From an uncultured Acidobacteriota bacterium (GTDB taxonomy: Bacteria > Acidobacteriota > Terriglobia > Terriglobales > Acidobacteriaceae): a DNA stretch of 24,000 nucleotides. The stretch is taken from positions 886,011 through 910,010 of the forward strand of contig CAWHTG010000002.1 in assembly GCA_963832245.1 (NCBI GenBank). The letters are read 5' to 3'. The position numbers were made by a program, and so were the translations under genes. A model generated the notes under the pieces. The model saw only the letters and a list, made by a program, of their open reading frames with translations. It made no database searches and was not told where the DNA came from. Position 1 is the stretch's first letter, and each line of letters begins with the position of its first letter. Positions 6,974-18,478 of the stretch are shown here, one piece after another.

Positions 6974-8077
6974 TTAGCTGCCGTTCGAACACACAGACAG
7001 CGACGAGTTTCCCTGGAAGCTCAGCCACCCATTCACCGACGTGCTCGTCGGCGCCCCAAAATAGGGCAGGGTGACCAGATCCTGCAAGTTGTAAGTAAAG
7101 CCGTTCACCGTGTAGGGGAAGCCTCCATAATTCGCCTCGCCCTCCAACGGATCGCCCACTTCCAGAATTCCGCACGGCGTGTTGTTGCCATTGACGTTGA
7201 CCACCAGCGGGTCGTCCGCCCACTCGCCGGTTTCATGCGACAACGCCGAAACATCCTGCGCAAAGTCGCCCGGATGGTCGACATAAGTGAAATGCGCATA
7301 GGCTTGCGGATTGCTGATGCTGCCTTCCGAGCTGTGATAGCCGCCAATACAGCATTGCCCGTTCTGCGTGAGGTAAACGTCGTAGGTAAGGAAGACAGGG
7401 AAGGTGTTGGGCTGAATCTGGGTGAACTTGGTGATCAGGCTCTGCACCTGCGCGTCAAAATAGTTGATATCCACCAGTCCCGCCTTGAACCCAAATACCG
7501 TTCCCGTTTTTCCGTAGCGCGAAGACGGACTCAGCGTCTGTTCCGCCAGCACCGTTGGTCCGCCCAATAGCAGGTGGTAGTTCGAATTGCTCTGCACCGT
7601 GCCCCAGAAATTCGCCCGTTGAAAAGCATCAATATACTGAGTCGTGCCCACGTTCACTCCACCTTGAACGTAGGTTGTGCTGGCATTGAAAATCGGCGAT
7701 ACCACGGTATTATTGGTCACCGTCCTTCCGTTCGACAGCACGTGAGACGGGTCATATGTAGTCTTCGCTCCCGTCCTTGACGTAATCACCACCTTCAGCG
7801 GAATGATATAAACCTGAACCGTAGTCGACGTATTGGTCGAAGGCGCGGTGCCGACCATGTTGTAGCTGTAATTCGTTCCCTGATAGTTAAAGGAGCCATT
7901 CCAGGTCTGCAACGAAGCTGGTGGCGCGACCACGTCATAGCGCAGCCGCGGCGGCAGAACTACGTATCGACCCTTTGGCTGTACCTGACTATCCTGACCT
8001 GAGGCAATTCCGGCTAGGCAAGCGCAGACCAGCACTGTGGTCCCAACCAGTAAACTGAGGCGTGCAAAAGTCTTCAT
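6974..8077 (-). CDS. secreted hypothetical protein
   Basis: 367-aa ORF. Signal peptide MKTFARLSLLVGTTVLVCACLAGIASG and a strong AAGGAGAG SD. Asn/Thr/Ser-rich beta-type composition. Conserved-looking CCIGGYH and SHETGEWADDP motifs. No family recognised. Confidence 0.75.
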   Translation of the reverse strand: MKTFARLSLLVGTTVLVCACLAGIASGQDSQVQPKGRYVVLPPRLRYDVVAPPASLQTWNGSFNYQGTNYSYNMVGTAPSTNTSTTVQVYIIPLKVVITSRTGAKTTYDPSHVLSNGRTVTNNTVVSPIFNASTTYVQGGVNVGTTQYIDAFQRANFWGTVQSNSNYHLLLGGPTVLAEQTLSPSSRYGKTGTVFGFKAGLVDINYFDAQVQSLITKFTQIQPNTFPVFLTYDVYLTQNGQCCIGGYHSSEGSISNPQAYAHFTYVDHPGDFAQDVSALSHETGEWADDPLVVNVNGNNTPCGILEVGDPLEGEANYGGFPYTVNGFTYNLQDLVTLPYFGAPTSTSVNGWLSFQGNSSLSVCSNGS

Positions 8078-8307: not shown

Positions 8308-8362
8308 AGATGTAGGCGCCGAGCGTCCAGATGTAGGCGCGAGCCTCCACCCTCGTGCAGCG
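8308..8362. repeat. interspersed repeat family B, 1.6 tandem copies (AGATGTAGGCGCGAGCGTCCACGCTCGTGCAGCG type)
   Basis: Truncated copy at 8308-8328, followed by a diverged full copy at 8329-8362. It has the same orientation as the copies at 9885-9918 and 10658-10683. Confidence 0.75.
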
Positions 8363-8395
8363 TCATTGGCAGCTAATGTCGAGCCAGGTTTTTCC

Positions 8396-9884: not shown

Positions 9885-9918
9885 AGATGTAGGCGCGAGC
9901 GTCCACGCTCGTGCAGCG
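9885..9918. repeat. interspersed repeat family B copy
   Basis: AGATGTAGGCGCGAGCGTCCACGCTCGTGCAGCG with a core palindrome GAGCGT-CC-ACGCTC at 9897-9910. Confidence 0.75.
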
Positions 9919-10099
9919 CCACGATAAAACCTTCGCATCCTCACCCATTTCGGCATCAATCCAAACTCCCGCAAAATCCTGTCAAGCCCCCTTTCACCCT
10001 CAATTCCCTCCAGACCCCACATTCCACAAGAGAAATAAAGTTACAAAATTGGCGGGTTTGCCCCCTCCCATGTGCTAGCCTATATCTATAAGAACAAAT

Positions 10100-10156: not shown

Positions 10157-10645
10157 ATGAAGCCATTAACCACAGCCGCCCTGCGCCCACCCATCCACCG
10201 CAACACCAAGCGCACCGGAGAACTCTCCGAAGCCGCCTTCCTGCTAAAAGCCGAAACCCTCGGCTTCCACCTAGCCAAACCTTGGGGAGATAGCGAGCGC
10301 TACGACTTCATCCTCGACACCGGCCCCCGCCTCTGGCGCGTCCAGCTGAAATGCACCGAAGTCCTCCGCGCCCGCGGCTACGACGTGCAACCCATCTACA
10401 GCATCTACGGCAAGGGCAAAGTCGTCTACACCGCCGACGAAATCGATGTCCTCGCCGCCCACATCGTCCCCCTCGACGTCTGGTACATCCTGCCCGTAGA
10501 AGCCTTCACCCCGAACAAGAGCCTCCGTTTCTACCCCAGCAACGAGTGCAAGCGCGCCCGCTGGGAAACCTACCGCGAAGCCTGGCACCTCCTGGACCCG
10601 AATGACGCCCCGTGTGGGGCGGACATTCCTGTCCGCCGCTTCTGA
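10157..10645 (+). CDS. stand-alone PD-(D/E)XK endonuclease (PDDEXK_5 / 'group I intron-associated' type)
   Basis: 162-aa ORF. GELSEAAFLLKAETLGFHLAKPWGDSERYDFILD...WRVQLKC gives the D...(V)Q(L)K catalytic-core pattern. ADEIDVLAAHIVPLDVWYILPVEA matches the conserved C-terminal half of that family as I remember it. The last ~10 codons are encoded by a palindromic repeat. Confidence 0.65.
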   Translation: MKPLTTAALRPPIHRNTKRTGELSEAAFLLKAETLGFHLAKPWGDSERYDFILDTGPRLWRVQLKCTEVLRARGYDVQPIYSIYGKGKVVYTADEIDVLAAHIVPLDVWYILPVEAFTPNKSLRFYPSNECKRARWETYREAWHLLDPNDAPCGADIPVRRF

Positions 10646-10962
10646 TTCCCGCTCCAACGTAGACGCGAGCGTCCACGCTCGTGTAACCAGAACCCCACCG
10701 TGAAATCCACCCACGCCAAAGAAGAAAAGGTGGGAAACGATAAACCCATCGTGAAATTGTCATCCTGAGGCGGCGGAGTCGGTCGCTCGCGAGCGACTCC
10801 CAACGAAGGATCTCTGTACTTCCCGCGGCCCGGTTAAGTATGCCGGCTGTCCTCGATGCGCGCTTCGTGGAAGGGCATGGCTTCAGCCATGCCGTCAAGC
10901 CACAGATGCGATCTAGGCCCGCACGGATTAGATTTTGGGTGGCGCAGCGCTTCCAGCGCTGC
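10618..10962. repeat. mosaic array of five different REP-like palindromic units
   Basis: The units are: GGCGGACA-TTCC-TGTCCGCC (10618-10637); a family B copy (10658-10683); the TGTCATCCTGAGG... unit with GGAGTCG/CGACTCC arms (10775-10800); GGCATGGCT-TC-AGCCATGCC (10874-10893); GCAGCGCT-TCC-AGCGCTGC (10944-10962). Confidence 0.8.
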
Positions 10963-11030
10963 GATAAAAAGCCATAAATTCGACTCAGGCCCCGCAGGGA
11001 ACAAGGCTCTCCAATTCGCTCCGGATCCCC

Positions 11031-11059
11031 TTGACTCCCACAAACCCTCAGAGTATGTT
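11031..11059 (+). promoter_or_regulatory. candidate sigma70 promoter for the DUF5131-TcmP cassette
   Basis: TTGACT (11031-11036), an exact 17-nt spacer, then TATGTT (11054-11059). It sits directly after the repeat array and upstream of the sORF and cassette. Confidence 0.45.
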
Positions 11060-11288
11060 TCCCCTTCCCCCAGAAATCAGACCCCGGAGTGTTTCTAAAG
11101 TCGCAGTCTGTCCGGAGGAAGCATGAACCAAGCGCGAGCCGGCGCGGCGCGGACGGTGTTGTCGAATCGAAGCTCGGCGGATTCAAGCGCGATGAGCCAT
11201 CGCCAAGAACGACCAAATGACTCAGGCGAATAAACAACGAATACTTTAATTTCCTTCATAATAGATCAAGGAGGCCGAGCGTTGCCTT

Positions 11289-12101
11289 ATGAGCAGCCAA
11301 TCATCGATTGAATGGACCGACGCAACTTGGAATCCCGTTCGAGGATGCACGAAGATCAGTCCTGGCTGCAAGTATTGCTACGCGGAAGTCTTTGCAGAAA
11401 GATTTCGCGGCGTAGCGGGACATGCTTATGAACGAGGCTTTGATCCGAGGCTAGTACCGGAGAAGCTAGCCGAGCCACTGCGCTGGAAAAAATCACGAAT
11501 GATTTTCGTCAATTCCATGAGCGATCTATTTCACAGCGGTGTGCCTGATGCGTACATCGTGAAAGTCGCTGGTGTGATGTCATTGGCAAATTGGCACATT
11601 TTCCAAGTGCTCACGAAAAGATCAGAGCGTTTGGAACAGATGCTAAAAACATCGCTGAAGCCGTACGCTTTGGAGCAACATATCTGGTGGGGCGTAAGTG
11701 TTGAGAACCAGAAACATGGGCTTCCGAGAATCCAGCACCTTCGGAGAGCCCCAGCGAAGGTTCGCTTCTTGTCTATCGAGCCGCTACTGGAGGACGTGGG
11801 TAGAATCGATTTAGATGGCATCTCTTGGGTCATCGTCGGAGGAGAAAGCGGCTCTAGGGCAAGGCCCATCAAGGAGGAATGGGTCGTCTCCATTCGTGAT
11901 CAATGTCAAGCCGCGAGAGTGCCGTTCTTTTTCAAACAATGGGGAGGCAAGTATAAGAAGAGAGCGGGGCGAACGCTAGACGGCAACACTTATGGTGAAT
12001 TCCCAGCCGTTGTTCGCGGTTTGGTGCCGGCCAACTCTGTCCGCGATGGTCACATCGCGAGCATCGAGAGGCTATCGGAATTAACGCCGATCTCCCTATG
12101 A
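11289..12101 (+). CDS. DUF5131 (phage Gp37/Gp68 family, PF07505) three-Cys-motif protein
   Basis: IEWTDATWNPVRGCTKISPGCKYCYAE (C20-x6-C27-x2-C30), FLSIEPLLE, WVIVGGESG and VPFFFKQWGG are the hallmark blocks of this family. AGGAGG lies 14 nt upstream of the ATG. The stop overlaps the next start (ATGA at 12098-12101). Confidence 0.85.
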   Translation: MSSQSSIEWTDATWNPVRGCTKISPGCKYCYAEVFAERFRGVAGHAYERGFDPRLVPEKLAEPLRWKKSRMIFVNSMSDLFHSGVPDAYIVKVAGVMSLANWHIFQVLTKRSERLEQMLKTSLKPYALEQHIWWGVSVENQKHGLPRIQHLRRAPAKVRFLSIEPLLEDVGRIDLDGISWVIVGGESGSRARPIKEEWVVSIRDQCQAARVPFFFKQWGGKYKKRAGRTLDGNTYGEFPAVVRGLVPANSVRDGHIASIERLSELTPISL

Positions 12102-13240
12102 ACGCCTCCCCTTATGAAGATCGCGAGCAGACGGAAGTTAAGCATCAAATCCTGCAAAGATATCTGTCCGCCTTTGTCCCTATCGTAGGAGACTGGGCAT
12201 CCGACATCGCGTACATCGACTGCTTTGCTGGTCCCTGGCGATCCGTTGATCCCGATTTAAGGGACACTTCATTCTCGCGCGCTGTCGAAGTGCTCCGGTC
12301 CACGCGTAAAGTATTGGCAGACCGTGGAAAACGTCCCACAATCAGATGCCTATTCATAGAGAAGGAACCTGTCCCGTTTCAGCAACTCAAGAAATTCTGC
12401 GAGGGGATCAAAGATATAGACGTCACGCCGAAGCACTGGGACTTCACGGCACACGTCGCAGATGTTGTCCAATTTGCAAATGGACGGAGGAATTCATTCC
12501 CTTTTATTTTCATCGATCCCAAAGGCTGGGAACCGCTTGAAATAGAGCTAATCGCCCCCATCCTCAGGCTAGACCCAGGCGAAGTCCTTATCAACCTCAT
12601 GACGTCATGGATTAGACGCTTTCTCTCCGACGAGGCCAAACCTTTTGACCGTCTCCTTGGCTCGGATTTGCCGAGGCTAAGGCAGCTGCGCGGAGAGGAG
12701 CAGGAAGAAGAACTCGTGCGGTCCTACAAGGATGCCGTAGTGAAAGCCGGAAAGTTCAGGTACGCTTGTACGCTTCCCGTGATGAAACCGGATCAAGACG
12801 CTTTTCATTTCCACATGATTTACGCGACGCGCAACATTAAAGGTGTTGAGGTCTTCAAAGAAACCGAGAAAGCCATCATCCCCTTTATGCATGAAACCCG
12901 TGCGAAGGCTCAGGAGAGAAAAAGAGTTGCGCAATCTGGTCAAACGTCATTCCTTCCTGCTGAGGCACACTACAAGGAGAAGCGATTCACTCAGTATCAG
13001 CTCAAAAACCTAGAAGTTGCAAAAAGCGAACTGAGAGAACTGCTTGAACAGAGCGAACGAGTCCTCTTTGATGATGCTTGGGCGAAGGCGATGCAGCACT
13101 CCACGGTGACCCAGGGCGACTTTCGCGAGTGGATCAACGAATGGAAGTCTAGTGGGTCGTTGACGTTTGTGAATCTCGAGCCGGGGCAGAAGGTACCTCG
13201 AAAGCACGAAGGTCAATACCTAAAGTGGATCAAAAGATGA
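12098..13240 (+). CDS. tcmP: three-Cys-motif partner protein TcmP (TIGR04474-like)
   Basis: 380-aa ORF immediately coupled to a DUF5131 gene, which is the defining context of TcmP. N-terminal TEVKHQILQRYL. YIDCFAGPW (Rossmann/methyltransferase motif-I-like) and FIFIDPKGW (motif-IV-like) blocks. Confidence 0.7.
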   Translation: MNASPYEDREQTEVKHQILQRYLSAFVPIVGDWASDIAYIDCFAGPWRSVDPDLRDTSFSRAVEVLRSTRKVLADRGKRPTIRCLFIEKEPVPFQQLKKFCEGIKDIDVTPKHWDFTAHVADVVQFANGRRNSFPFIFIDPKGWEPLEIELIAPILRLDPGEVLINLMTSWIRRFLSDEAKPFDRLLGSDLPRLRQLRGEEQEEELVRSYKDAVVKAGKFRYACTLPVMKPDQDAFHFHMIYATRNIKGVEVFKETEKAIIPFMHETRAKAQERKRVAQSGQTSFLPAEAHYKEKRFTQYQLKNLEVAKSELRELLEQSERVLFDDAWAKAMQHSTVTQGDFREWINEWKSSGSLTFVNLEPGQKVPRKHEGQYLKWIKR

Positions 13241-13301
13241 TGTGCCTAAGATCCGGTTCGTTTCGATGGCAACTGGCTCACACCCGTGTAATAATCCGCT
13301 T

Positions 13302-13559
13302 ATGGCAACCAACCTTACCCTGGACGATGAGCTAATCGAAGAAGCCCGACGCGTCGGCCACCGCAAAACAAAGAAGGATGCAGTTACCGCAGCTCTCACC
13401 GAATACGTGCAGCGCCGCAAGCACCTCCGCATCCTCGAATCGTTCGGCACCGTCGACTTCAATCCCAAGTACGACTACAAAGCGGAGCGCCGGCGGTCGG
13501 CACGGCTTTCGTCACACCTAAAAAACAAAACCCCGAGCCGTTGTCGGCCCAGGGCGTAA
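13302..13559 (+). CDS. vapB: VapB-family (PF09957-type, RHH-like) antitoxin homologue with no adjacent toxin
   Basis: From the ATG at 13302: MATNLTLDDELIEEARRVGHRKTKKDAVTAALTEYVQRRKHLRILESFGTVDFNPKYDYKAERRR. This is the typical pattern of this antitoxin family. It is followed by a ~20-aa basic tail not typical of the family. No PIN/VapC ORF follows. Confidence 0.7.
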   Translation: MATNLTLDDELIEEARRVGHRKTKKDAVTAALTEYVQRRKHLRILESFGTVDFNPKYDYKAERRRSARLSSHLKNKTPSRCRPRA

Positions 13560-13676
13560 CCTGTCCAGCTACAAAATTGATTATCGATAGACGCAGATTG
13601 GAAGTCAAGATTACCTGGGGAGTCTGCCTGCCCTCAGACTCCCTGTCAGCTCCCCTACCAAAGCGGGGGAACGCTG

Positions 13677-13749
13677 TGGACCCGGCGGGATTCGAACCTG
13701 CACCTTGTAACTGGACAGGCTACCGTGCTCCCAGTTACACCACGGGCCC
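13677..13749 (-). tRNA. tRNA-like gene, anticodon GUC by position (Asp), with atypical features
   Basis: Hand fold of GGGCCCG-UG-GUGU-AACUGGGA-GCAC-G-GUAGC-CUGUCCA-GUUAC-AAGGU-GCAGG-UUCGAAU-CCCGC-CGGGUCC-A. This gives a 7-bp acceptor stem, D arm with GG, GGTTCGAATCC T-loop box and a 5-nt variable loop. No CCA is encoded. Oddities: G3-U70, A73, C37, and an A51-C63 mismatch. Confidence 0.6.
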
Positions 13750-13867
13750 CAGCGTAGCCTAGGAGGCCTGCTGGGCCTGAACAAGTTCGTCCGTCACATC
13801 GCCGCAAGCGAGTGCCAACTCGGGAAGCTACAGCTGATGACTCCGATGATTACGACGCCCCATTCGA

Positions 13868-13923
13868 CCCAGCCCGAAGCCGGAAGCCTGAAGCCCGCAG
13901 CCCGCAGCCTAAAGCCTAATCCC
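13868..13923. repeat. tandem heptamer repeat (NNNAGCC)x8
   Basis: CCCAGCC CGAAGCC GGAAGCC TGAAGCC CGCAGCC CGCAGCC TAAAGCC TAATCCC read directly from the sequence. It is intergenic, between the tRNA and the radical SAM gene. Confidence 0.8.
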
Positions 13924-14221
13924 CTCAATCACTTACATCCATCCAATGCACCATTCCGCCGCTAAACCCCGATTTTGCCCCTTTCATTGGGTTCCGCGTG
14001 TCATCCCCCAGTGCCTTCAATAAGATGGTTACACAATGAAACCCAGGGAGAGGTCCATCGAGAAGGCCTCTTCAGGTTGAGCCGTGAAGCGTAGAGAGTG
14101 AAGGTCAAACAGGGGTAGGTTCTACCGGTTCATACGTTTGCAGAATTTGAATTTGAGCCCCGGGGGAAAAGTGGCAGATGCCTGACTGGCCACAGTCCCC
14201 AGCGAAAGAAAGCGAGAGAAC

Positions 14222-16387
14222 ATGCACAAGCCAGTGAAGTATGTGGAGAAAGCAGTCACCGTTGCTGCCAGAGGCGTGTGGGCGGTGTTCGACCGGGTTA
14301 ACCGGATCAAACAGAATCCTTCGCCGACGCCCAAGTGGTCCGATAAGCCGCTGCTTAAGTCTTACGAGAAGACCAAGCCTCCGCTGGGCTGGCCGCGTAC
14401 CACAGACTCGCTGTGCCCGAAGTGTGTTCCCGAAATCCGCCAGCAGATTCTTGATGGCAAGCTCCCCGTCGAAGTTCTGAGCACTGAAAAGGTCGGCGAG
14501 ATCAAAGCCCAGATCATCGAGCGCGATGGCAAGATACTGATGGTGAAGGATTGCGAAAAACACGGCCACTTTGAAGATGTGATGTCGATTGACACCGACT
14601 TCTCGCGCCACTTAGAAGAAGTTTTTCCTGGCCGCGACATTGTTGCGCATAACGACGAGAAGCTGCACCACCACGGCTCGAGCACAGTAAAGTACGGACG
14701 CGGCTCAGTGCTCACCATCGACCTCACCAACCGTTGCAACATGATGTGCGACCCCTGCTTCATGGACGCAAACCAGGTCGGCTTCGTGCACGAGTTGGGC
14801 TGGGAAGATATCAAGACCATGCTCGACAACGCCATCACGATCAAGCCGAAGCGGCAGATGTCGGTGCAATTCTCGGGCGGCGAGCCAACGCTTTCGCCGT
14901 ACTTCCTGGATGCGGTGCGCTACGCGCGCAAAGTTGGATACAACAGCGTGCAGGCTGCGACCAACGGAATTGAGTTTGCCAAGAGCTTGGAGTTCGCGCA
15001 ACAAGCTGCCGAAGCAGGAATGCGCTATGCCTATCTGCAATTCGACGGCATCGGAAACGCCGCGAACGCCCACAGAAAAGTCGGCAACCTCTTCGACGTA
15101 AAGTTGAAAGCCATCGAGAACCTGCACACCGCCGGAATCGAAATCGTCCCGGTAGTCACGATCGTAAACGGAATCAATAACGAGCAGGTAGGACGCATCA
15201 TCAAGTTCGCCCTCGACAATCCCAAAAAGATCGGCTTCCTAAGCTTCCAACCAGTAAGCTTCACCGGCCGCGATGAAGCCGTTACCGACGACCGCCGCGA
15301 AGCCCAGCGCTACACGCTCTCCCACCTAGCCCACGACGTAAAAAATCAAACTGGCCTAGGCGAACCAAGCCGGGACTGGTTCCCAATCTCGTTCATGGGA
15401 ACTTTCTCTGACTGGGCCGACCTAATGCACGTAGACGACCCCAAAAACAACTGGGGCCAACTGTCATGTGGTTGCCACCCTAATTGTGGGACGGGGATGG
15501 CTGTGATGATTGATAAGGAGACTAAGGAGGCGGTTCCGGTCACCGCGTTTTTGAAGGGCGATCAACTCGCGAAGGACATTCAGAAGGTCAATGATGCGGC
15601 TCGGGGGAAGTTTCTGACGGTTGTGGGGATGGCTTTGTGTTTGATGAAGAACTACGATCCGTTTCAGTCGCCTACTCATTTCAAGTTGATGGATCTTTTG
15701 AAGAAGTTTGATAAGAACTTTAACGCCACCGGGAAGAATTATGGGAAGGTTGGTCCGGACCGGACGATTGACGACGTGATGAAGCGGCGGCAGGACCGGT
15801 GGAACTTTTTATTTATTGCGGGGATGTGGTTTCAGGATTTGTTCAACTACGATTTCCGGCGGACGGAGCAGTGCATTATTCCTTATGCGACGCAGGAGGG
15901 TGAGATTTCTTTCTGCGCTTACAATACCGGGGTGGGTTGGCGGAACATTATCGAGAAGATGCACATGACCGCTACTCTCACCAAGTGGTATGAGGAGCAT
16001 GGGCGGCATGAGATCTTTGCGGGTGGTAAGAATGTGAAGATGGAGTCGACGGCGCACTCTCTGCTGCTTAAGGATGAGTTGGTAACTAATGAAGAGCAGC
16101 GGGATCTCGATAAGCTGGGTATTGCCAAGAATTCGCGGGAAGAGAAGCTGCGGGCGCGGGATGCGAAGCAGCAAGCTTCCGGCGTCGGACTTCAGGCTTC
16201 AGGAAAGAAAGATGCACGCGGTCCGCAGAAGGATGATGCGGCTTACAATGCGCGCATGGCGGCTCTCTATCGCGAAGTGGTGTTGCAGGAGAAGCCGGCT
16301 GTGGCGGAGAACGGGTTTATTCCTTTGGGGGCTTTGACTGCTTCGAAACCTAAAGTGGACGTGGGAGAGCCGGTTTTGGGGGATTGA
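14222..16387 (+). CDS. radical SAM protein, MJ0619/COG1964 (Tes / GDGT-MAS-like membrane-spanning lipid synthase) type
   Basis: Canonical CNMMCDPC (CX3CX2C) followed by the FSGGEPTL SAM motif. An N-terminal CPKC...(42 aa)...CEKHGH knuckle resembles a rubredoxin/zinc ribbon. Downstream Cys clusters are CGCHPNCG and CIIPYATQEGEISFCAYN. The radical SAM call is solid; the Tes-family assignment is from memory of the family architecture. Confidence 0.85.
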   Translation: MHKPVKYVEKAVTVAARGVWAVFDRVNRIKQNPSPTPKWSDKPLLKSYEKTKPPLGWPRTTDSLCPKCVPEIRQQILDGKLPVEVLSTEKVGEIKAQIIERDGKILMVKDCEKHGHFEDVMSIDTDFSRHLEEVFPGRDIVAHNDEKLHHHGSSTVKYGRGSVLTIDLTNRCNMMCDPCFMDANQVGFVHELGWEDIKTMLDNAITIKPKRQMSVQFSGGEPTLSPYFLDAVRYARKVGYNSVQAATNGIEFAKSLEFAQQAAEAGMRYAYLQFDGIGNAANAHRKVGNLFDVKLKAIENLHTAGIEIVPVVTIVNGINNEQVGRIIKFALDNPKKIGFLSFQPVSFTGRDEAVTDDRREAQRYTLSHLAHDVKNQTGLGEPSRDWFPISFMGTFSDWADLMHVDDPKNNWGQLSCGCHPNCGTGMAVMIDKETKEAVPVTAFLKGDQLAKDIQKVNDAARGKFLTVVGMALCLMKNYDPFQSPTHFKLMDLLKKFDKNFNATGKNYGKVGPDRTIDDVMKRRQDRWNFLFIAGMWFQDLFNYDFRRTEQCIIPYATQEGEISFCAYNTGVGWRNIIEKMHMTATLTKWYEEHGRHEIFAGGKNVKMESTAHSLLLKDELVTNEEQRDLDKLGIAKNSREEKLRARDAKQQASGVGLQASGKKDARGPQKDDAAYNARMAALYREVVLQEKPAVAENGFIPLGALTASKPKVDVGEPVLGD

Positions 16388-16450
16388 TTCTCGAAAAGGC
16401 GTCAGCACCGAGTGTGTGGAAGAGAACGATTTGAGGACTTATATTGCGCA

Positions 16451-16476
16451 GGCCGCCAGTGTTGGCGGCTTTTTTC
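16451..16476 (+). terminator. rho-independent terminator of the radical SAM gene
   Basis: GGCCGCC-AGTGTT-GGCGGCT followed by TTTTTT, 64 nt after the stop codon. Confidence 0.7.
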
Positions 16477-16543
16477 AGTGCTGCTCACGGTGCGCCGACT
16501 TTCTGCAACTCTTTTCCACTGCCGACCTTACCGTCTCCCACCT

Positions 16544-16882
16544 TTACAAAAGGCGTAAAGGTGGGCCAGCCCCCGGTGTAATGATTTCCCAGGGGGACAT
16601 TCCTTCTAGGGTCTGTATCAATCCATTGGCGTCCTCCGGAGTCGAGAATCCCCTCCAAGTCCGCTCGCGACCCGCATCGCCAATGCGCTCGTCAACTCCG
16701 ATGAACAATTCCCCTCCGGCTGTATTCGCGAAGGCACTTACAGCCTTGGTAACGCTGGCTGGGCTAATATCGACTGCCTTCAGATCGACGAAATGACCTT
16801 CCTCAGTTGTGAGTAGGACTTCAACTTCATCGTCAGCCATCCTCGTTACGGTGATTGACATAGCATTCAGCAGAAAAAACAT
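16544..16882 (-). pseudogene. truncated AlbA_2 (Schlafen-like 'divergent AAA' DNA-binding) domain fragment
   Basis: EEGHFVDLKAVDISPASVTKAVSAFANTAGGELFIGVDE matches the N-terminal AlbA_2 signature (E..EFK...i.AfaNt.GG.l.iGv). Full-length relatives are several hundred aa, whereas this ORF stops after ~100 aa inside a 10-bp-arm hairpin (16538-16566). Only ~150 nt remain before the next gene. The start is uncertain (16882, 16861 or 16840). Confidence 0.55.
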
Positions 16883-17054
16883 TAGCGATACAGCAAATTT
16901 ATGTTTACAAATCTATCAGGTTCCCAAGTCAATGGAATATTTTCCAAACAGCGAAATAGCGGACATCTCGGTCGAAGACGCCAGCCCAGGGGGGATATTT
17001 AGATCGGGTCTCCGGTGAATGAGTGTAATCGCGATTTTGCACCAAGTTGGTGCA

Positions 17055-18344
17055 TCAATTCGTCTTACTCTGGCCGGTTGTGCTAGTGGAAGGCGCAAAC
17101 GCAATCTGTATGTTCTTCCTGAGGTCGTCGAGTCCAGATTGGCTGCCGTGCATGAACAACCATGCGATCCAGTAGTTGTTGTCTTCGGTGAAGATGACGG
17201 AAGTGAAGACATCGAGCGGCTGCTTTGTGTTCGGTATGTCGGCCTTGAACTCGCTGGAAAGGTCAAGCATCATCCGATTCTGTAGCATGAATGCTCTGAG
17301 CGTGTTTTGACCTTTGCCAAAGAACGGCGTTCGCGAAAGTGCCCTCGACATTTGCATACCCAACTGCCGGAGTACCTGTTGATCATTAATCGAACTCGGC
17401 AAGTGCATACCCGGTAGGCAGTCGGAGTCGAACGCCATAATCCCAACTAGCGGGTTGACTCCATCAGTCCTCGTGCCCTCAGGATATTGCGTGGTCGAAA
17501 GCAGTATCCTGCCACACTCTGTTGCGACCTCGTGTTCGCGCGCCGCAGCTGGGTCATTCCCGTACGCAAACTGATGCCCAGCTTCCACGACTTTATCCTG
17601 CGTTGCCTTATCAGCGACGATCCATCCGGCTGGAAATTGAAAAGAAAAACCGAGCGTGTTGTTCGTATACGTGTTGGCTGATACGATTCCGGGGTTTAGT
17701 TGAGCAATATGCGTGGGAGATACTGGAGCGTGAGACGTACCCTCAGTTTTCGCTGGAAAGAGGCGGGCGTTATTACCCGCCAAGACCTTCGCCTGAGCGG
17801 GATCAACGAACGTGATCGACTCGACGCTGTGCCGCAGTTCTTTGGCAAGCTTCCCATCGTAAGACACCACCATGAATTGTAACGTGTAACCGCTCATCGT
17901 GGTCGCATACATGAGCGTATGCATCGTGCCAGCGCGACTACTCTCCTCCGACTCAGATTTCCAGAACTCTCTGCCCCCGATCTCAACTTTTTTAACTGAG
18001 CCCCCTTTTACCCCCGCCGCCGCTTTCCGAGCCTCGTCAGTCGGGTTGCCAACGCTTTGAGTCGCGCTGACTCTCAAGGCGGTTAACCCGTTTCGCTGAG
18101 TTTGAACACCAAAAATTGAGCGGGACTTGCCCAACGGGGGAGGCACGAAATCCCGAAAATCGATATCTTGGGGAAGGGTCAGCGAAAATCCAGAAAATGC
18201 GTTGACATAACGCGAATCGGAAATGTATCCCGTTTCTGGTATAGGCGCTGGCCCTCGTTCTGCCTGACTCAGCATTCGAGTCTGGACGATCACGCAAAAC
18301 AGGAGCACTCCCACGCGTGCAACCGTACTCTTAGAGCAGATCAT
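17055..18344 (-). CDS. secreted hypothetical protein
   Basis: 429-aa ORF with an N-terminal hydrophobic leader (VARVGVLLFCVIVQTRMLSQA). No recognisable domain. G+C is lower than the flanks (29/60 in the line I counted). Confidence 0.65.
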   Translation of the reverse strand: MICSKSTVARVGVLLFCVIVQTRMLSQAERGPAPIPETGYISDSRYVNAFSGFSLTLPQDIDFRDFVPPPLGKSRSIFGVQTQRNGLTALRVSATQSVGNPTDEARKAAAGVKGGSVKKVEIGGREFWKSESEESSRAGTMHTLMYATTMSGYTLQFMVVSYDGKLAKELRHSVESITFVDPAQAKVLAGNNARLFPAKTEGTSHAPVSPTHIAQLNPGIVSANTYTNNTLGFSFQFPAGWIVADKATQDKVVEAGHQFAYGNDPAAAREHEVATECGRILLSTTQYPEGTRTDGVNPLVGIMAFDSDCLPGMHLPSSINDQQVLRQLGMQMSRALSRTPFFGKGQNTLRAFMLQNRMMLDLSSEFKADIPNTKQPLDVFTSVIFTEDNNYWIAWLFMHGSQSGLDDLRKNIQIAFAPSTSTTGQSKTN

Positions 18345-18478
18345 GATGTACCTGCATCAGTATTATGCCCTTTTCCGAAACTGACGCAAACAGCGATTAC
18401 ACTCAAAACTCCCGTTTGAAGGTAGTTTTCCGAGGGGGTGCAACTTTGGATGGCTCTAGCTCCTATCCCCATCCCAGA

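Follow-up and report, generated by a model that had tools for sequence, protein, structure and literature searches.

A discrete DUF5131–TcmP cassette in an acidobacterial contig encodes a putative radical-SAM enzyme and a partner with a predicted methyltransferase fold

The window analysed here, a stretch of 24,000 nucleotides from a metagenomic acidobacterial contig of ~1 Mb that looks like a long-read assembly (ENA ERZ25039605), contained a pair of overlapping genes for a DUF5131 protein and a TcmP protein, together referred to as the cassette. The two open reading frames (ORFs) and the signals at their starts were as follows.

11270-11274, forward strand: GGAGG, Shine-Dalgarno-like, 14 nt ahead of the ATG of ORF1 (direct sequence reading)
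11289-12101, forward strand: ORF1, 270 amino acids (aa), DUF5131 (Gp37/Gp68), putative radical S-adenosylmethionine (SAM) [4Fe-4S] enzyme (PF07505, PADLOC, RadicalSAM.org), with the blocks VRGC20TKISPGC27KYC30YA and W180VIVGGESG188
12098-12101, forward strand: ATGA start/stop overlap, the ATG of ORF2 lying within the stop of ORF1 (CTATGAAC)
12098-13240, forward strand: ORF2, 380 aa, TcmP (TIGR04474, PADLOC PDC-M30A, AlphaFold2 model, Foldseek), with the blocks Y39IDCFAGPW47 and F136IFIDPKGW144

An earlier reading of the sequence alone (the original prediction) had given these coordinates, the Cys, GGESG and motif blocks and the ATGA overlap, and all were correct on re-reading. As read from the sequence, the overlap implies translational coupling of the two ORFs. 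The families proposed at the time were checked with hidden Markov models, and both scores were far over the cut-offs. PF07505 matched ORF1 over its full length (profile positions 1-243 of 243, E 3.3e-99, 331.8 bits, cut-off 28.9), and TIGR04474 (TcmP) matched ORF2 with 131.7 bits (cut-off 53) over profile positions 1-260 of 263. No Pfam family matched ORF2 in a Pfam search, and neither ORF had a sequence relative among solved structures. The pair is an already catalogued unknown (TIGR04474 with PF07505, RadicalSAM.org, PADLOC PDC-M30/M41) of which the window copy is typical: it is a full member of both families of the TIGR04474 and PF07505 'three-Cys-motif' pair, in adjacent genes.

The cassette is situated within a discrete presence/absence segment of 2.3 kb. 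Flanking loci were fetched with the 721-aa radical-SAM gene at 14222-16387, which had at least 597 metagenomic relatives; the 80 best were compared, and none of these loci contained DUF5131 or TcmP. In the closest cassette-free locus, L088, whose flanks shared 82–90% DNA identity with the window, an unrelated 168 bp took the place of window positions 10966 to ~13269. In blastn, homology between the window and L088 ended after 10965 and resumed at ~13270-13286, just before the VapB-like gene. The segment is most simply explained as a gain in the lineage of the window. Beside the two ORFs it comprised two parts.

10966-11288, no strand: cassette-specific upstream non-coding segment, left part of the 2.3-kb segment (blastn against L088)
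13241-13269, no strand: right edge of the presence/absence segment (blastn against L088)

The composition of the cassette agreed with a separate origin. Its G+C content at third codon positions (GC3) was 0.56-0.57, compared with 0.60-0.81 (mean ~0.68) in 13 flanking host genes, and is truly atypical. Whole-gene G+C contents were 51.9% (ORF1) and 50.8% (ORF2), with 55.1% for the window. The original prediction had argued for horizontal acquisition from counts in single lines of sequence; these were unrepresentative, and the gene at 6974-8077, one line of which had been counted at 62%, had 55.2%. The acquisition itself was borne out on the better basis of the empty site in L088 and the low GC3.

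Among the cassette-bearing loci, homology began at the first base of ORF1 and faded within ORF2 or close to its end; the sequence on either side was not conserved. Conserved upstream elements, whether a promoter, a riboswitch or another RNA, were considered and rejected, since the 323-bp leader was not conserved in other cassette-bearing loci and Rfam matched only the tRNA; positions 10966-11288 held only a weak sigma-70-like site (11031-11059). Right before the left break, at 10937-10965, a hairpin resembling repetitive extragenic palindromic (REP) elements was common to the window and L088.

ORF1 was compared with 61 close relatives (alignment A2) and with 12 diverse members of DUF5131, phage and plasmid copies included (alignment A5). 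Three sites stood out.

11346-11378, forward strand: codons of C20-x6-C27-x2-C30, predicted ligands of the SAM-binding [4Fe-4S] cluster, invariant in the alignments
11838-11852, forward strand: codons of G184-G185-E186-S187-G188, invariant in A2 and A5
11904-11906, forward strand: codon of C206, a fourth invariant Cys outside the cluster motif (A2 and A5)

C20, C27 and C30 were invariant in both alignments. Conserved extra Cys residues are typical of radical-SAM enzymes that act on nucleic acids, such as spore photoproduct lyase (SPL) and RlmN/Cfr. C206 did not vary among the DUF5131 proteins of bacteria, plasmids and phages and might, by analogy, be a radical-relay or methyl-carrier Cys as in SPL or RlmN/Cfr. 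The GGESG block followed strand 180-183, the fifth strand of the β/α core predicted by the AlphaFold2 model, and may correspond to the radical-SAM GGE motif. Other residues invariant in the 12 diverse members were D79, T109-K-R111, W133, G135, E139, S162, E164-P-L and K216-Q. The three-Cys site had the variant spacing CX6CX2C, which RadicalSAM.org accepts as a superfamily variant; following SFLD, this resource places DUF5131 in radical-SAM Megacluster-5-2, and spore photoproduct lyase falls in the same megacluster (PMC9477430). On sequence grounds, ORF1 is a member of DUF5131, a recognised radical-SAM subgroup with the motif CX6CX2C. The Fe-S/radical-SAM character that had been proposed for ORF1 thus coincided with the published classification, and was joined by a weak match to TIGR04471 'radical SAM mobile pair A' (E 4.3e-23, 82 bits, far under the cut-off of 355). 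Alignment of ORF1 with the window's own PF04055 protein by hhalign gave no signal.

The structure of TcmP was modelled from an alignment of 65 relatives (pLDDT, the predicted local distance difference test, 94.8; pTM, the predicted template modelling score, 0.92). Its conservation was assessed in 104 diverse sequences with pairwise identities of 26–55% (alignment A3).

12218-12238, forward strand: codons of D41-C-F-A-G45-P46-W47, motif-I-like loop after β1 (conservation in A3)
12515-12529, forward strand: codons of D140-P141-K-G143-W144, motif-IV-like loop after β4, at the C-terminal end of strand 133-139 (A3)
12983-13237, forward strand: C-terminal winged-helix-like domain of TcmP, residues ~296-380 (AlphaFold2 model)

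In the model, residues ~1-245 formed a seven-stranded class-I methyltransferase fold with β1-β7 topology and a β6-β7 hairpin (strands 36-41, 81-87, 108-112, 133-139, 162-167, 222-229 and 236-244). A long helix (247-280) stood between this domain and a C-terminal domain built as helix-helix-helix-hairpin (H296-318, H324-332, H339-351, E355-358, E374-377). The best matches in a Foldseek search of the PDB were RlmJ (6qe5, E 1.7e-6), Trm1 (3axs, 6e-6) and the DUF519 protein 2oo3 (1.8e-5); SAM methyltransferases made up nearly all of the top 20 (probability 1.0) and most of the 50 listed, and only generic methyltransferase folds were returned by BFVD. The methyltransferase likeness originally suggested for ORF2 therefore holds at the level of fold.

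Conservation in the family was concentrated at a few positions: Y6, K15/H16, D41-x-F-x-G45-P-W47, D56/S58, E88, D140-P141-x-G143-W144, E162 and N166. D41, F43, G45, P46 and W47 were each at least 90% conserved, D140 and P141 were invariant, and G143 and W144 were at least 90% conserved. The most conserved sites are the loops after β1, β2 and β4, where methyltransferases hold SAM and the flipped base. Motif IV of TcmP, DPxGW, departed from (D/N/S)PP(Y/F/W).

The two best structural matches, the exocyclic-amino RNA methyltransferases RlmJ (23S rRNA m6A2030; 6qe5, 4blu) and Trm1 (tRNA m2,2G; 3axs), both with probability 1.0, resembled TcmP by eye in a K-H helix at the N terminus, in motif I (xLDxxAG), in an acidic residue ending β2 and in motif IV (D-P-x-aromatic). 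The parallels in RlmJ, whose sequence was verified against PDB 4blu, were HADVLKH, YLDTHAGAGRY, LTELHP and LILIDPPYE, and had no statistical support. RlmJ and Trm1 act alone on RNA and carry a DPPY motif IV, whereas TcmP has DPxGW, ends in a winged helix and depends on a radical-SAM protein as its obligate partner. In the model, then, the likeness to RlmJ stands at fold level only and not as membership of the RlmJ family.

Of TcmP, only residues 10-258 fall within the TIGR04474 model. The extra domain of ~120 aa, modelled as the long helix and the winged helix, was carried by the clade of the window and by most of the 150 best family representatives; the family comprised 2,957 clusters at 50% identity (E <= 1e-3), and most of these 150 representatives spanned the full ~380 aa. 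The reading of the C-terminal domain as a winged helix was supported by matches in relatives. PF22560 (GMT-wHTH) was matched by 6 of the 104 diverse TcmPs (best E 4.6e-6), as well as by the Halopiger TcmP (30.1 bits, cut-off 27) and, weakly and under the cut-off (22.1 bits), by the second TcmP-like protein of Pseudomonas aeruginosa; MCM4_WHD was matched by two TcmPs. The window TcmP itself matched no winged-helix family. No literature source for the Pfam name GMT-wHTH was located.

DUF5131 and TcmP behaved as a unit across genomes. In a scan of a genome collection, TcmP relatives turned up at 64 loci, in genomes of Acidobacteriota, Verrucomicrobiota, Planctomycetota, Nitrospirota, Binatia and Dormibacterota. 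DUF5131 was adjacent to TcmP in 61 of them, the remaining three being cut by a contig end, and the order was DUF5131 followed by TcmP in all but two. At the 57 usable junctions with DUF5131 upstream of TcmP there were 21 overlaps of 4 nt (NTGA), three overlaps of 1 nt and 18 gaps of 1-12 nt. The distance matrices of the two proteins were correlated (Mantel r 0.62, a value reached by none of 999 permutations). TcmP diverged faster, with a mean distance of 0.60 compared with 0.39 for DUF5131, which fits a specificity subunit beside a conserved catalytic one. A conserved third gene was sought by all-against-all clustering of the ORFs located up to 4 kb from the pair in the 64 loci and was rejected, as only synteny among close relatives emerged, such as a threonyl-tRNA synthetase gene in five Terriglobales loci.

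The ratio of nonsynonymous to synonymous substitution rates (dN/dS) of ORF1 against its nearest DNA relative, L048, was 0.05, and by this sequence measure the pair is under purifying selection. It is very improbable that the cassette is what remains of a decaying mobile element and serves no present function in the window genome. Such a remnant would be in keeping with a cassette that stands alone, without partners, and with the broken TcmP of 6 of the 64 related loci; both ORFs were intact, however, with every family-invariant residue and the ATGA junction kept, and the low dN/dS argues against decay. As a separate observation, TcmP was split into two ORFs or truncated in L010, L033, L048, L056, L058 and L064. 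DUF5131 was usually intact in such cases, and TcmP is apparently the first of the pair to decay.

The settings of the pair differed between chromosomes and mobile elements. On the chromosomes of soil bacteria it lay among ordinary genes, for example those for BshC, IspG/GatC and DapB. In 7 of 65 loci the pair had a tRNA gene within 3 kb, a share not clearly over background.

The temperate Gordonia phages Fairfaxidum and Jablanski carried DUF5131 and a TcmP homologue between integrase and immunity repressor, an interval that is typically a classic place of prophage-expressed genes. These homologues scored 109-117 bits with TIGR04474 and were annotated as 'methyltransferase'. In both phages (Fairfaxidum gp42/gp43, L065 3992-5933; Jablanski gp43/gp42, L066 3947-5816) the pair was convergent, with overlapping 3' ends. 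Solo DUF5131 genes were found in 181 of 50,697 phage records, typically within recombination and replication modules. In phage Bakery DUF5131 directly followed a C5 DNA methylase gene, and in prophiT36-2a it was two genes after a DNA methyltransferase gene. Some actinophage annotations label DUF5131 as 'RNA methyltransferase'.

TcmP was present in 20 of 72,556 plasmids. In one of the examples, a region of a Sulfitobacter plasmid included ssb, DUF932, radC and ParB genes. On the P. aeruginosa plasmid NZ_CP124633.1, of the integrative and conjugative element (ICE) type, the pair lay beside a DUF6094 methyltransferase and an SNF2 helicase. This region (L070 4944-11497) contained, in this order, the DUF6094 methyltransferase, an SNF2/DrmD-like helicase, TcmP, a truncated DUF5131 of 179 aa and a second, divergent TcmP of 444 aa, and adjoined ICE transfer genes; the truncated DUF5131 ORF was missing from the gene table. 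On a Halopiger plasmid, TcmP followed radical-SAM proteins of the SplB/PA0069 type instead of DUF5131.

The pair was also found among defence candidates. In PADLOC-DB v2, ORF1 matched PDC-M30B (2e-104) and PDC-M41B (8.7e-104), and ORF2 matched PDC-M30A (4e-15; 53.7 bits, weak) and PDC-M41A (3.5e-6), all as raw matches to which PADLOC's own thresholds were not applied. The PDCs are 'phage defence candidates' drawn from genes repeatedly embedded in BREX, DISARM and type I restriction-modification (RM) loci, and are mostly untested (Payne et al., bioRxiv 10.1101/2024.01.29.577857). Both protein families and their adjacency are identical in PDC-M30/M41 and the window pair; PDC-M30/M41 were defined inside BREX, DISARM and type I RM loci of RefSeq genomes, whereas the window copy stands alone among housekeeping genes. 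The sole functional hint came from Sinorhizobium meliloti, in which the TcmP gene SMa2243 was upregulated together with SMa2245, the Hna defence gene beside it (PMC12445080).

Characterised or catalogued radical-SAM systems were compared with the pair. SPL and the SplB/PA0069/Rv2578c proteins share Megacluster-5 with DUF5131, and an SplB-type protein partners the Halopiger TcmP; the SPL-type motif is CX3CX2C rather than the CX6CX2C of ORF1, and there was no sign of a repair function for the pair. The 'radical SAM mobile pair' TIGR04470/TIGR04471 was related through the match of ORF1 to TIGR04471, below its cut-off. Viperins are validated radical-SAM defence effectors. Prokaryotic viperins and Ophion, an anti-phage system of a radical-SAM, a PHP and a PRTase protein (bioRxiv 10.1101/2025.09.30.679545), resemble the window pair in having a radical-SAM protein as presumed effector in a small mobile cluster. 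They belong to other radical-SAM clades and differ in their partners, Ophion having PHP and PRTase and viperins having none. Both have been validated by experiment and use free nucleotides, a type of substrate not indicated for the window pair.

A defence of that kind was weighed for the cassette. The radical-SAM protein would make a toxic or chain-terminating nucleotide, as viperins do and as proposed for Ophion, and TcmP would be a non-catalytic sensor of phage nucleic acid or a regulator. The validated effectors, the listing of the pair as a PADLOC defence candidate and the degenerate motif I of TcmP speak for this model. It nevertheless appears improbable: ORF1 matched no PADLOC viperin or Ophion model, conservation in TcmP peaked at SAM- and base-binding positions, as in an active site rather than a sensor, and the solo DUF5131 genes of phages are hard to square with a toxic anti-phage effector.

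Beyond the assignment of families and folds, what follows is inferred. Our preferred reading, in which we place about even confidence, is that the cassette is a self-contained mobile two-subunit enzyme that modifies bases of nucleic acid, probably DNA, in conflicts between hosts and mobile elements. TcmP would bind nucleic acid, most likely DNA, through its winged helix, present a flipped base and possibly methylate an exocyclic amine. DUF5131 would reductively cleave SAM on its [4Fe-4S] cluster to yield a 5'-deoxyadenosyl radical, which, with C206 as relay, would modify the base presented by TcmP or its methyl group. The product might either self-mark the cell's DNA for defence, as the PADLOC listing as PDC-M30 suggests, or shield phage, plasmid or ICE DNA from restriction, or do both in different carriers. 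The copy on the acidobacterial chromosome would be a recently acquired, stand-alone one. DUF5131 is abundant in phage genomes and in entry-type regions of plasmids, which implies that 'defence' is at best half of the role. We favoured DNA as the likelier substrate on several grounds: TcmP carries a winged helix, DUF5131 and SPL fall in one megacluster, proteins of the SplB type serve as alternative partners, phage copies neighbour DNA-methylase and replication genes, and the PADLOC candidates were embedded in DNA-modification defence loci.

Several observations weigh against this reading. On the side of ORF1, the AlphaFold2 model, with six alternating β/α units, had only a moderate pLDDT of 79, and below 50 in the Cys cluster loop, as expected without the cluster. 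Foldseek returned weak TIM-barrel matches only (best E 5e-3) and no radical-SAM enzyme for this model, and PF04055 did not match ORF1 at E <= 0.01. On the side of TcmP, motif I was degenerate, with a single glycine (AGPW), which implies that the protein may bind SAM without transferring a methyl group, and Pfam methyltransferase families were matched by none of the 104 diverse sequences. A sequence link from TcmP to RlmJ or another solved protein was tried and rejected, as phmmer and hmmsearch with the single sequence and with alignments A1 and A3 against the PDB, and hhalign against RlmJ, were all negative. The nearest structural relatives in the Foldseek search of the PDB were RNA and not DNA enzymes. 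With regard to context, a census of 143 neighbours from 25 diverse genomes gave just 4 matches to PADLOC models, and the commonest Pfam families among the 143 were housekeeping ones; on chromosomes of Acidobacteriota, Planctomycetota and Verrucomicrobiota the neighbours were likewise of the housekeeping kind, and genes for defence or mobility were all but absent. Finally, no experimental characterisation of DUF5131, PF07505, TcmP, TIGR04474, Gp37/Gp68 or PDC-M30/M41 was found in the full-text literature. The original prediction had said as much, and had overlooked the listing as PDC-M30/M41 and the filing of DUF5131 among radical-SAM proteins.

What had been predicted about context held in part. 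A defence-island setting was not borne out by the census, and an association with mobile elements did hold elsewhere, in prophage lysogeny modules, plasmids and ICEs. A uniformly housekeeping setting with no defence or mobile association had been named as an outcome that would speak against the original prediction, and only half of that outcome was seen. Overall, its observation is correct and its biochemical guess reasonable, and its argument from the local context is wrong.

RNA is a serious rival substrate because the nearest TcmP folds are all RNA methyltransferases (RlmJ, Trm1, CmoA, NSUN5, Trm4 and KsgA among the top neighbours). The pair would then modify a base of rRNA or tRNA, in the manner of Cfr/RlmN or RlmJ, and make the cell resistant to an antibiotic that targets the ribosome, to a toxin that cleaves tRNA or to a phage factor, hence its horizontal spread. 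The label given to DUF5131 by some actinophage annotators and the housekeeping chromosomal neighbours point the same way. We nonetheless consider an RNA target unlikely, given the phage copies within DNA replication and recombination modules and beside DNA methyltransferases, the radical-SAM clade common to the DNA enzyme SPL, the winged helix of TcmP, which is typical of DNA binders, and the definition of the PADLOC candidates by their embedding in DNA-modification defence.

Returning to a base-modifying enzyme acting on DNA, a more specific form is possible, though we hold it to be doubtful: the pair may write a chemically undescribed base mark, for which TcmP would pick out a DNA base, flip it and perhaps N-methylate it, and DUF5131 would perform C-H chemistry on that base via C206. 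The mark would be a portable label of self and non-self, used in cell defence and in phage or plasmid counter-defence. If true, this would be a radical-SAM analogue of restriction-modification methylation. A new radical-SAM-dependent mark on DNA or RNA would be new chemistry for epigenetic self/non-self discrimination, and would also explain the widespread candidate defence PDC-M30. The DUF5131 and TcmP family is large and extends across bacteria, archaea, phages and plasmids. To what was catalogued, the present analysis adds the fold and winged helix of TcmP, the fourth invariant Cys, statistics on junctions and co-variation, and a naturally empty site for comparison. The window's own contribution is small beyond this clean presence/absence pair, which is useful for comparative analysis of modifications.

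The genes on either side of the cassette were examined for a part in the system.

10157-10645: PDDEXK_5 nuclease gene (PDDEXK_5 E 5.5e-18)
13302-13559, forward strand: VapB-like orphan antitoxin gene, PF09957 (VapB E 1.2e-15)
13676-13749, reverse strand: tRNA-Asp, 436 nt downstream of the pair, with the VapB gene between

The nuclease and VapB genes are local backbone and lie outside the cassette. In L088 the order of PDDEXK_5, the VapB-like gene and the radical-SAM gene was unchanged, and aa identity was 95% for PDDEXK_5 and 83% for the VapB-like protein. PDDEXK_5 was found upstream of the 721-aa radical-SAM gene in ~12 cassette-free loci and VapB in two, L088 and L097. The PDDEXK_5 gene had the highest GC3 of the window (0.81), which, set against the 0.56 of the cassette, suggests different histories. 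No VapC (PIN-domain) partner was found beside the VapB-like gene, and the window contained no defence gene besides a generic nuclease match.

The cassette had originally been placed in an accessory or defence patch associated with a tRNA, together with the PD-(D/E)XK nuclease and the VapB gene. The two genes do flank the pair, with tRNA-Asp close downstream, but such a patch is scarcely credible: L088 has the nuclease and VapB genes upstream of the radical-SAM gene with neither cassette nor tRNA, neither gene stood beside the pair in the 64 other loci, and the GC3 values of nuclease and cassette differ. Additionally, VapC was absent, an integrase was missing from the 24-kb window, and the 3' end of the tRNA was not repeated directly; the sole tRNA-related repeat was a 19-nt inverted copy of the anticodon arm.

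This inverted copy (13556-13574; 17/19 nt) corresponded to positions 13705-13723 of the tRNA-Asp anticodon arm and lay 130 nt from the tRNA. The tRNA-Asp and its surroundings of ~430 bp (13497-13925) had no counterpart in L088, and none of six related loci checked (five close relatives and L162, whose only tRNA was a tRNA-Lys elsewhere) had a tRNA-Asp at the same site. The 3' end of the VapB-like gene crossed a terminator-like hairpin on the reverse strand (13530-13555; an 11-bp stem followed by a T-run), which appears to serve tRNA-Asp.

Around the nuclease gene, which was labelled as homing-endonuclease-like in PADLOC, REP-like palindromic repeats with the core CGAGCG-TCCA-CGCTCG lay in intergenic positions (8329-8365, 9885-9921 and 10655-10691), two copies bracketing the gene. 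The hairpin at 10937-10965 was of a second REP-like type, GCGCAGCGCT-TCC-AGCGCTGCG. Sequence like window positions 10726-11062 occurred on both sides of PDDEXK_5 in L088, which suggests that the nuclease gene is a small mobile insert.

The 721-aa radical-SAM protein encoded downstream on the forward strand (14222-16387) had an N-terminal zinc ribbon of the HMPTM type (PF04055 and PF23545), and its identity across the 80 best of the at least 597 metagenomic relatives was 74–95%. This wide conservation indicates a core acidobacterial gene; we presume that the protein may be tetraether-lipid-synthase-like. Beyond it, positions 16400-18469 formed a second presence/absence segment of ~2 kb relative to L088, in which the radical-SAM gene directly preceded a NuoB-like gene. 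This segment contained, on the reverse strand, an AlbA_2/Schlafen-like ORF of 112 aa (16544-16882; weak Pfam match, PHROG 'DNA helicase' 3.7e-9) and a gene for a 429-aa protein without family (17055-18344; GC3 0.60). In L140 (CABEEC010000039.1), 20 tRNA genes were clustered within ~1.9 kb, 2-4 kb upstream of the 721-aa radical-SAM gene.

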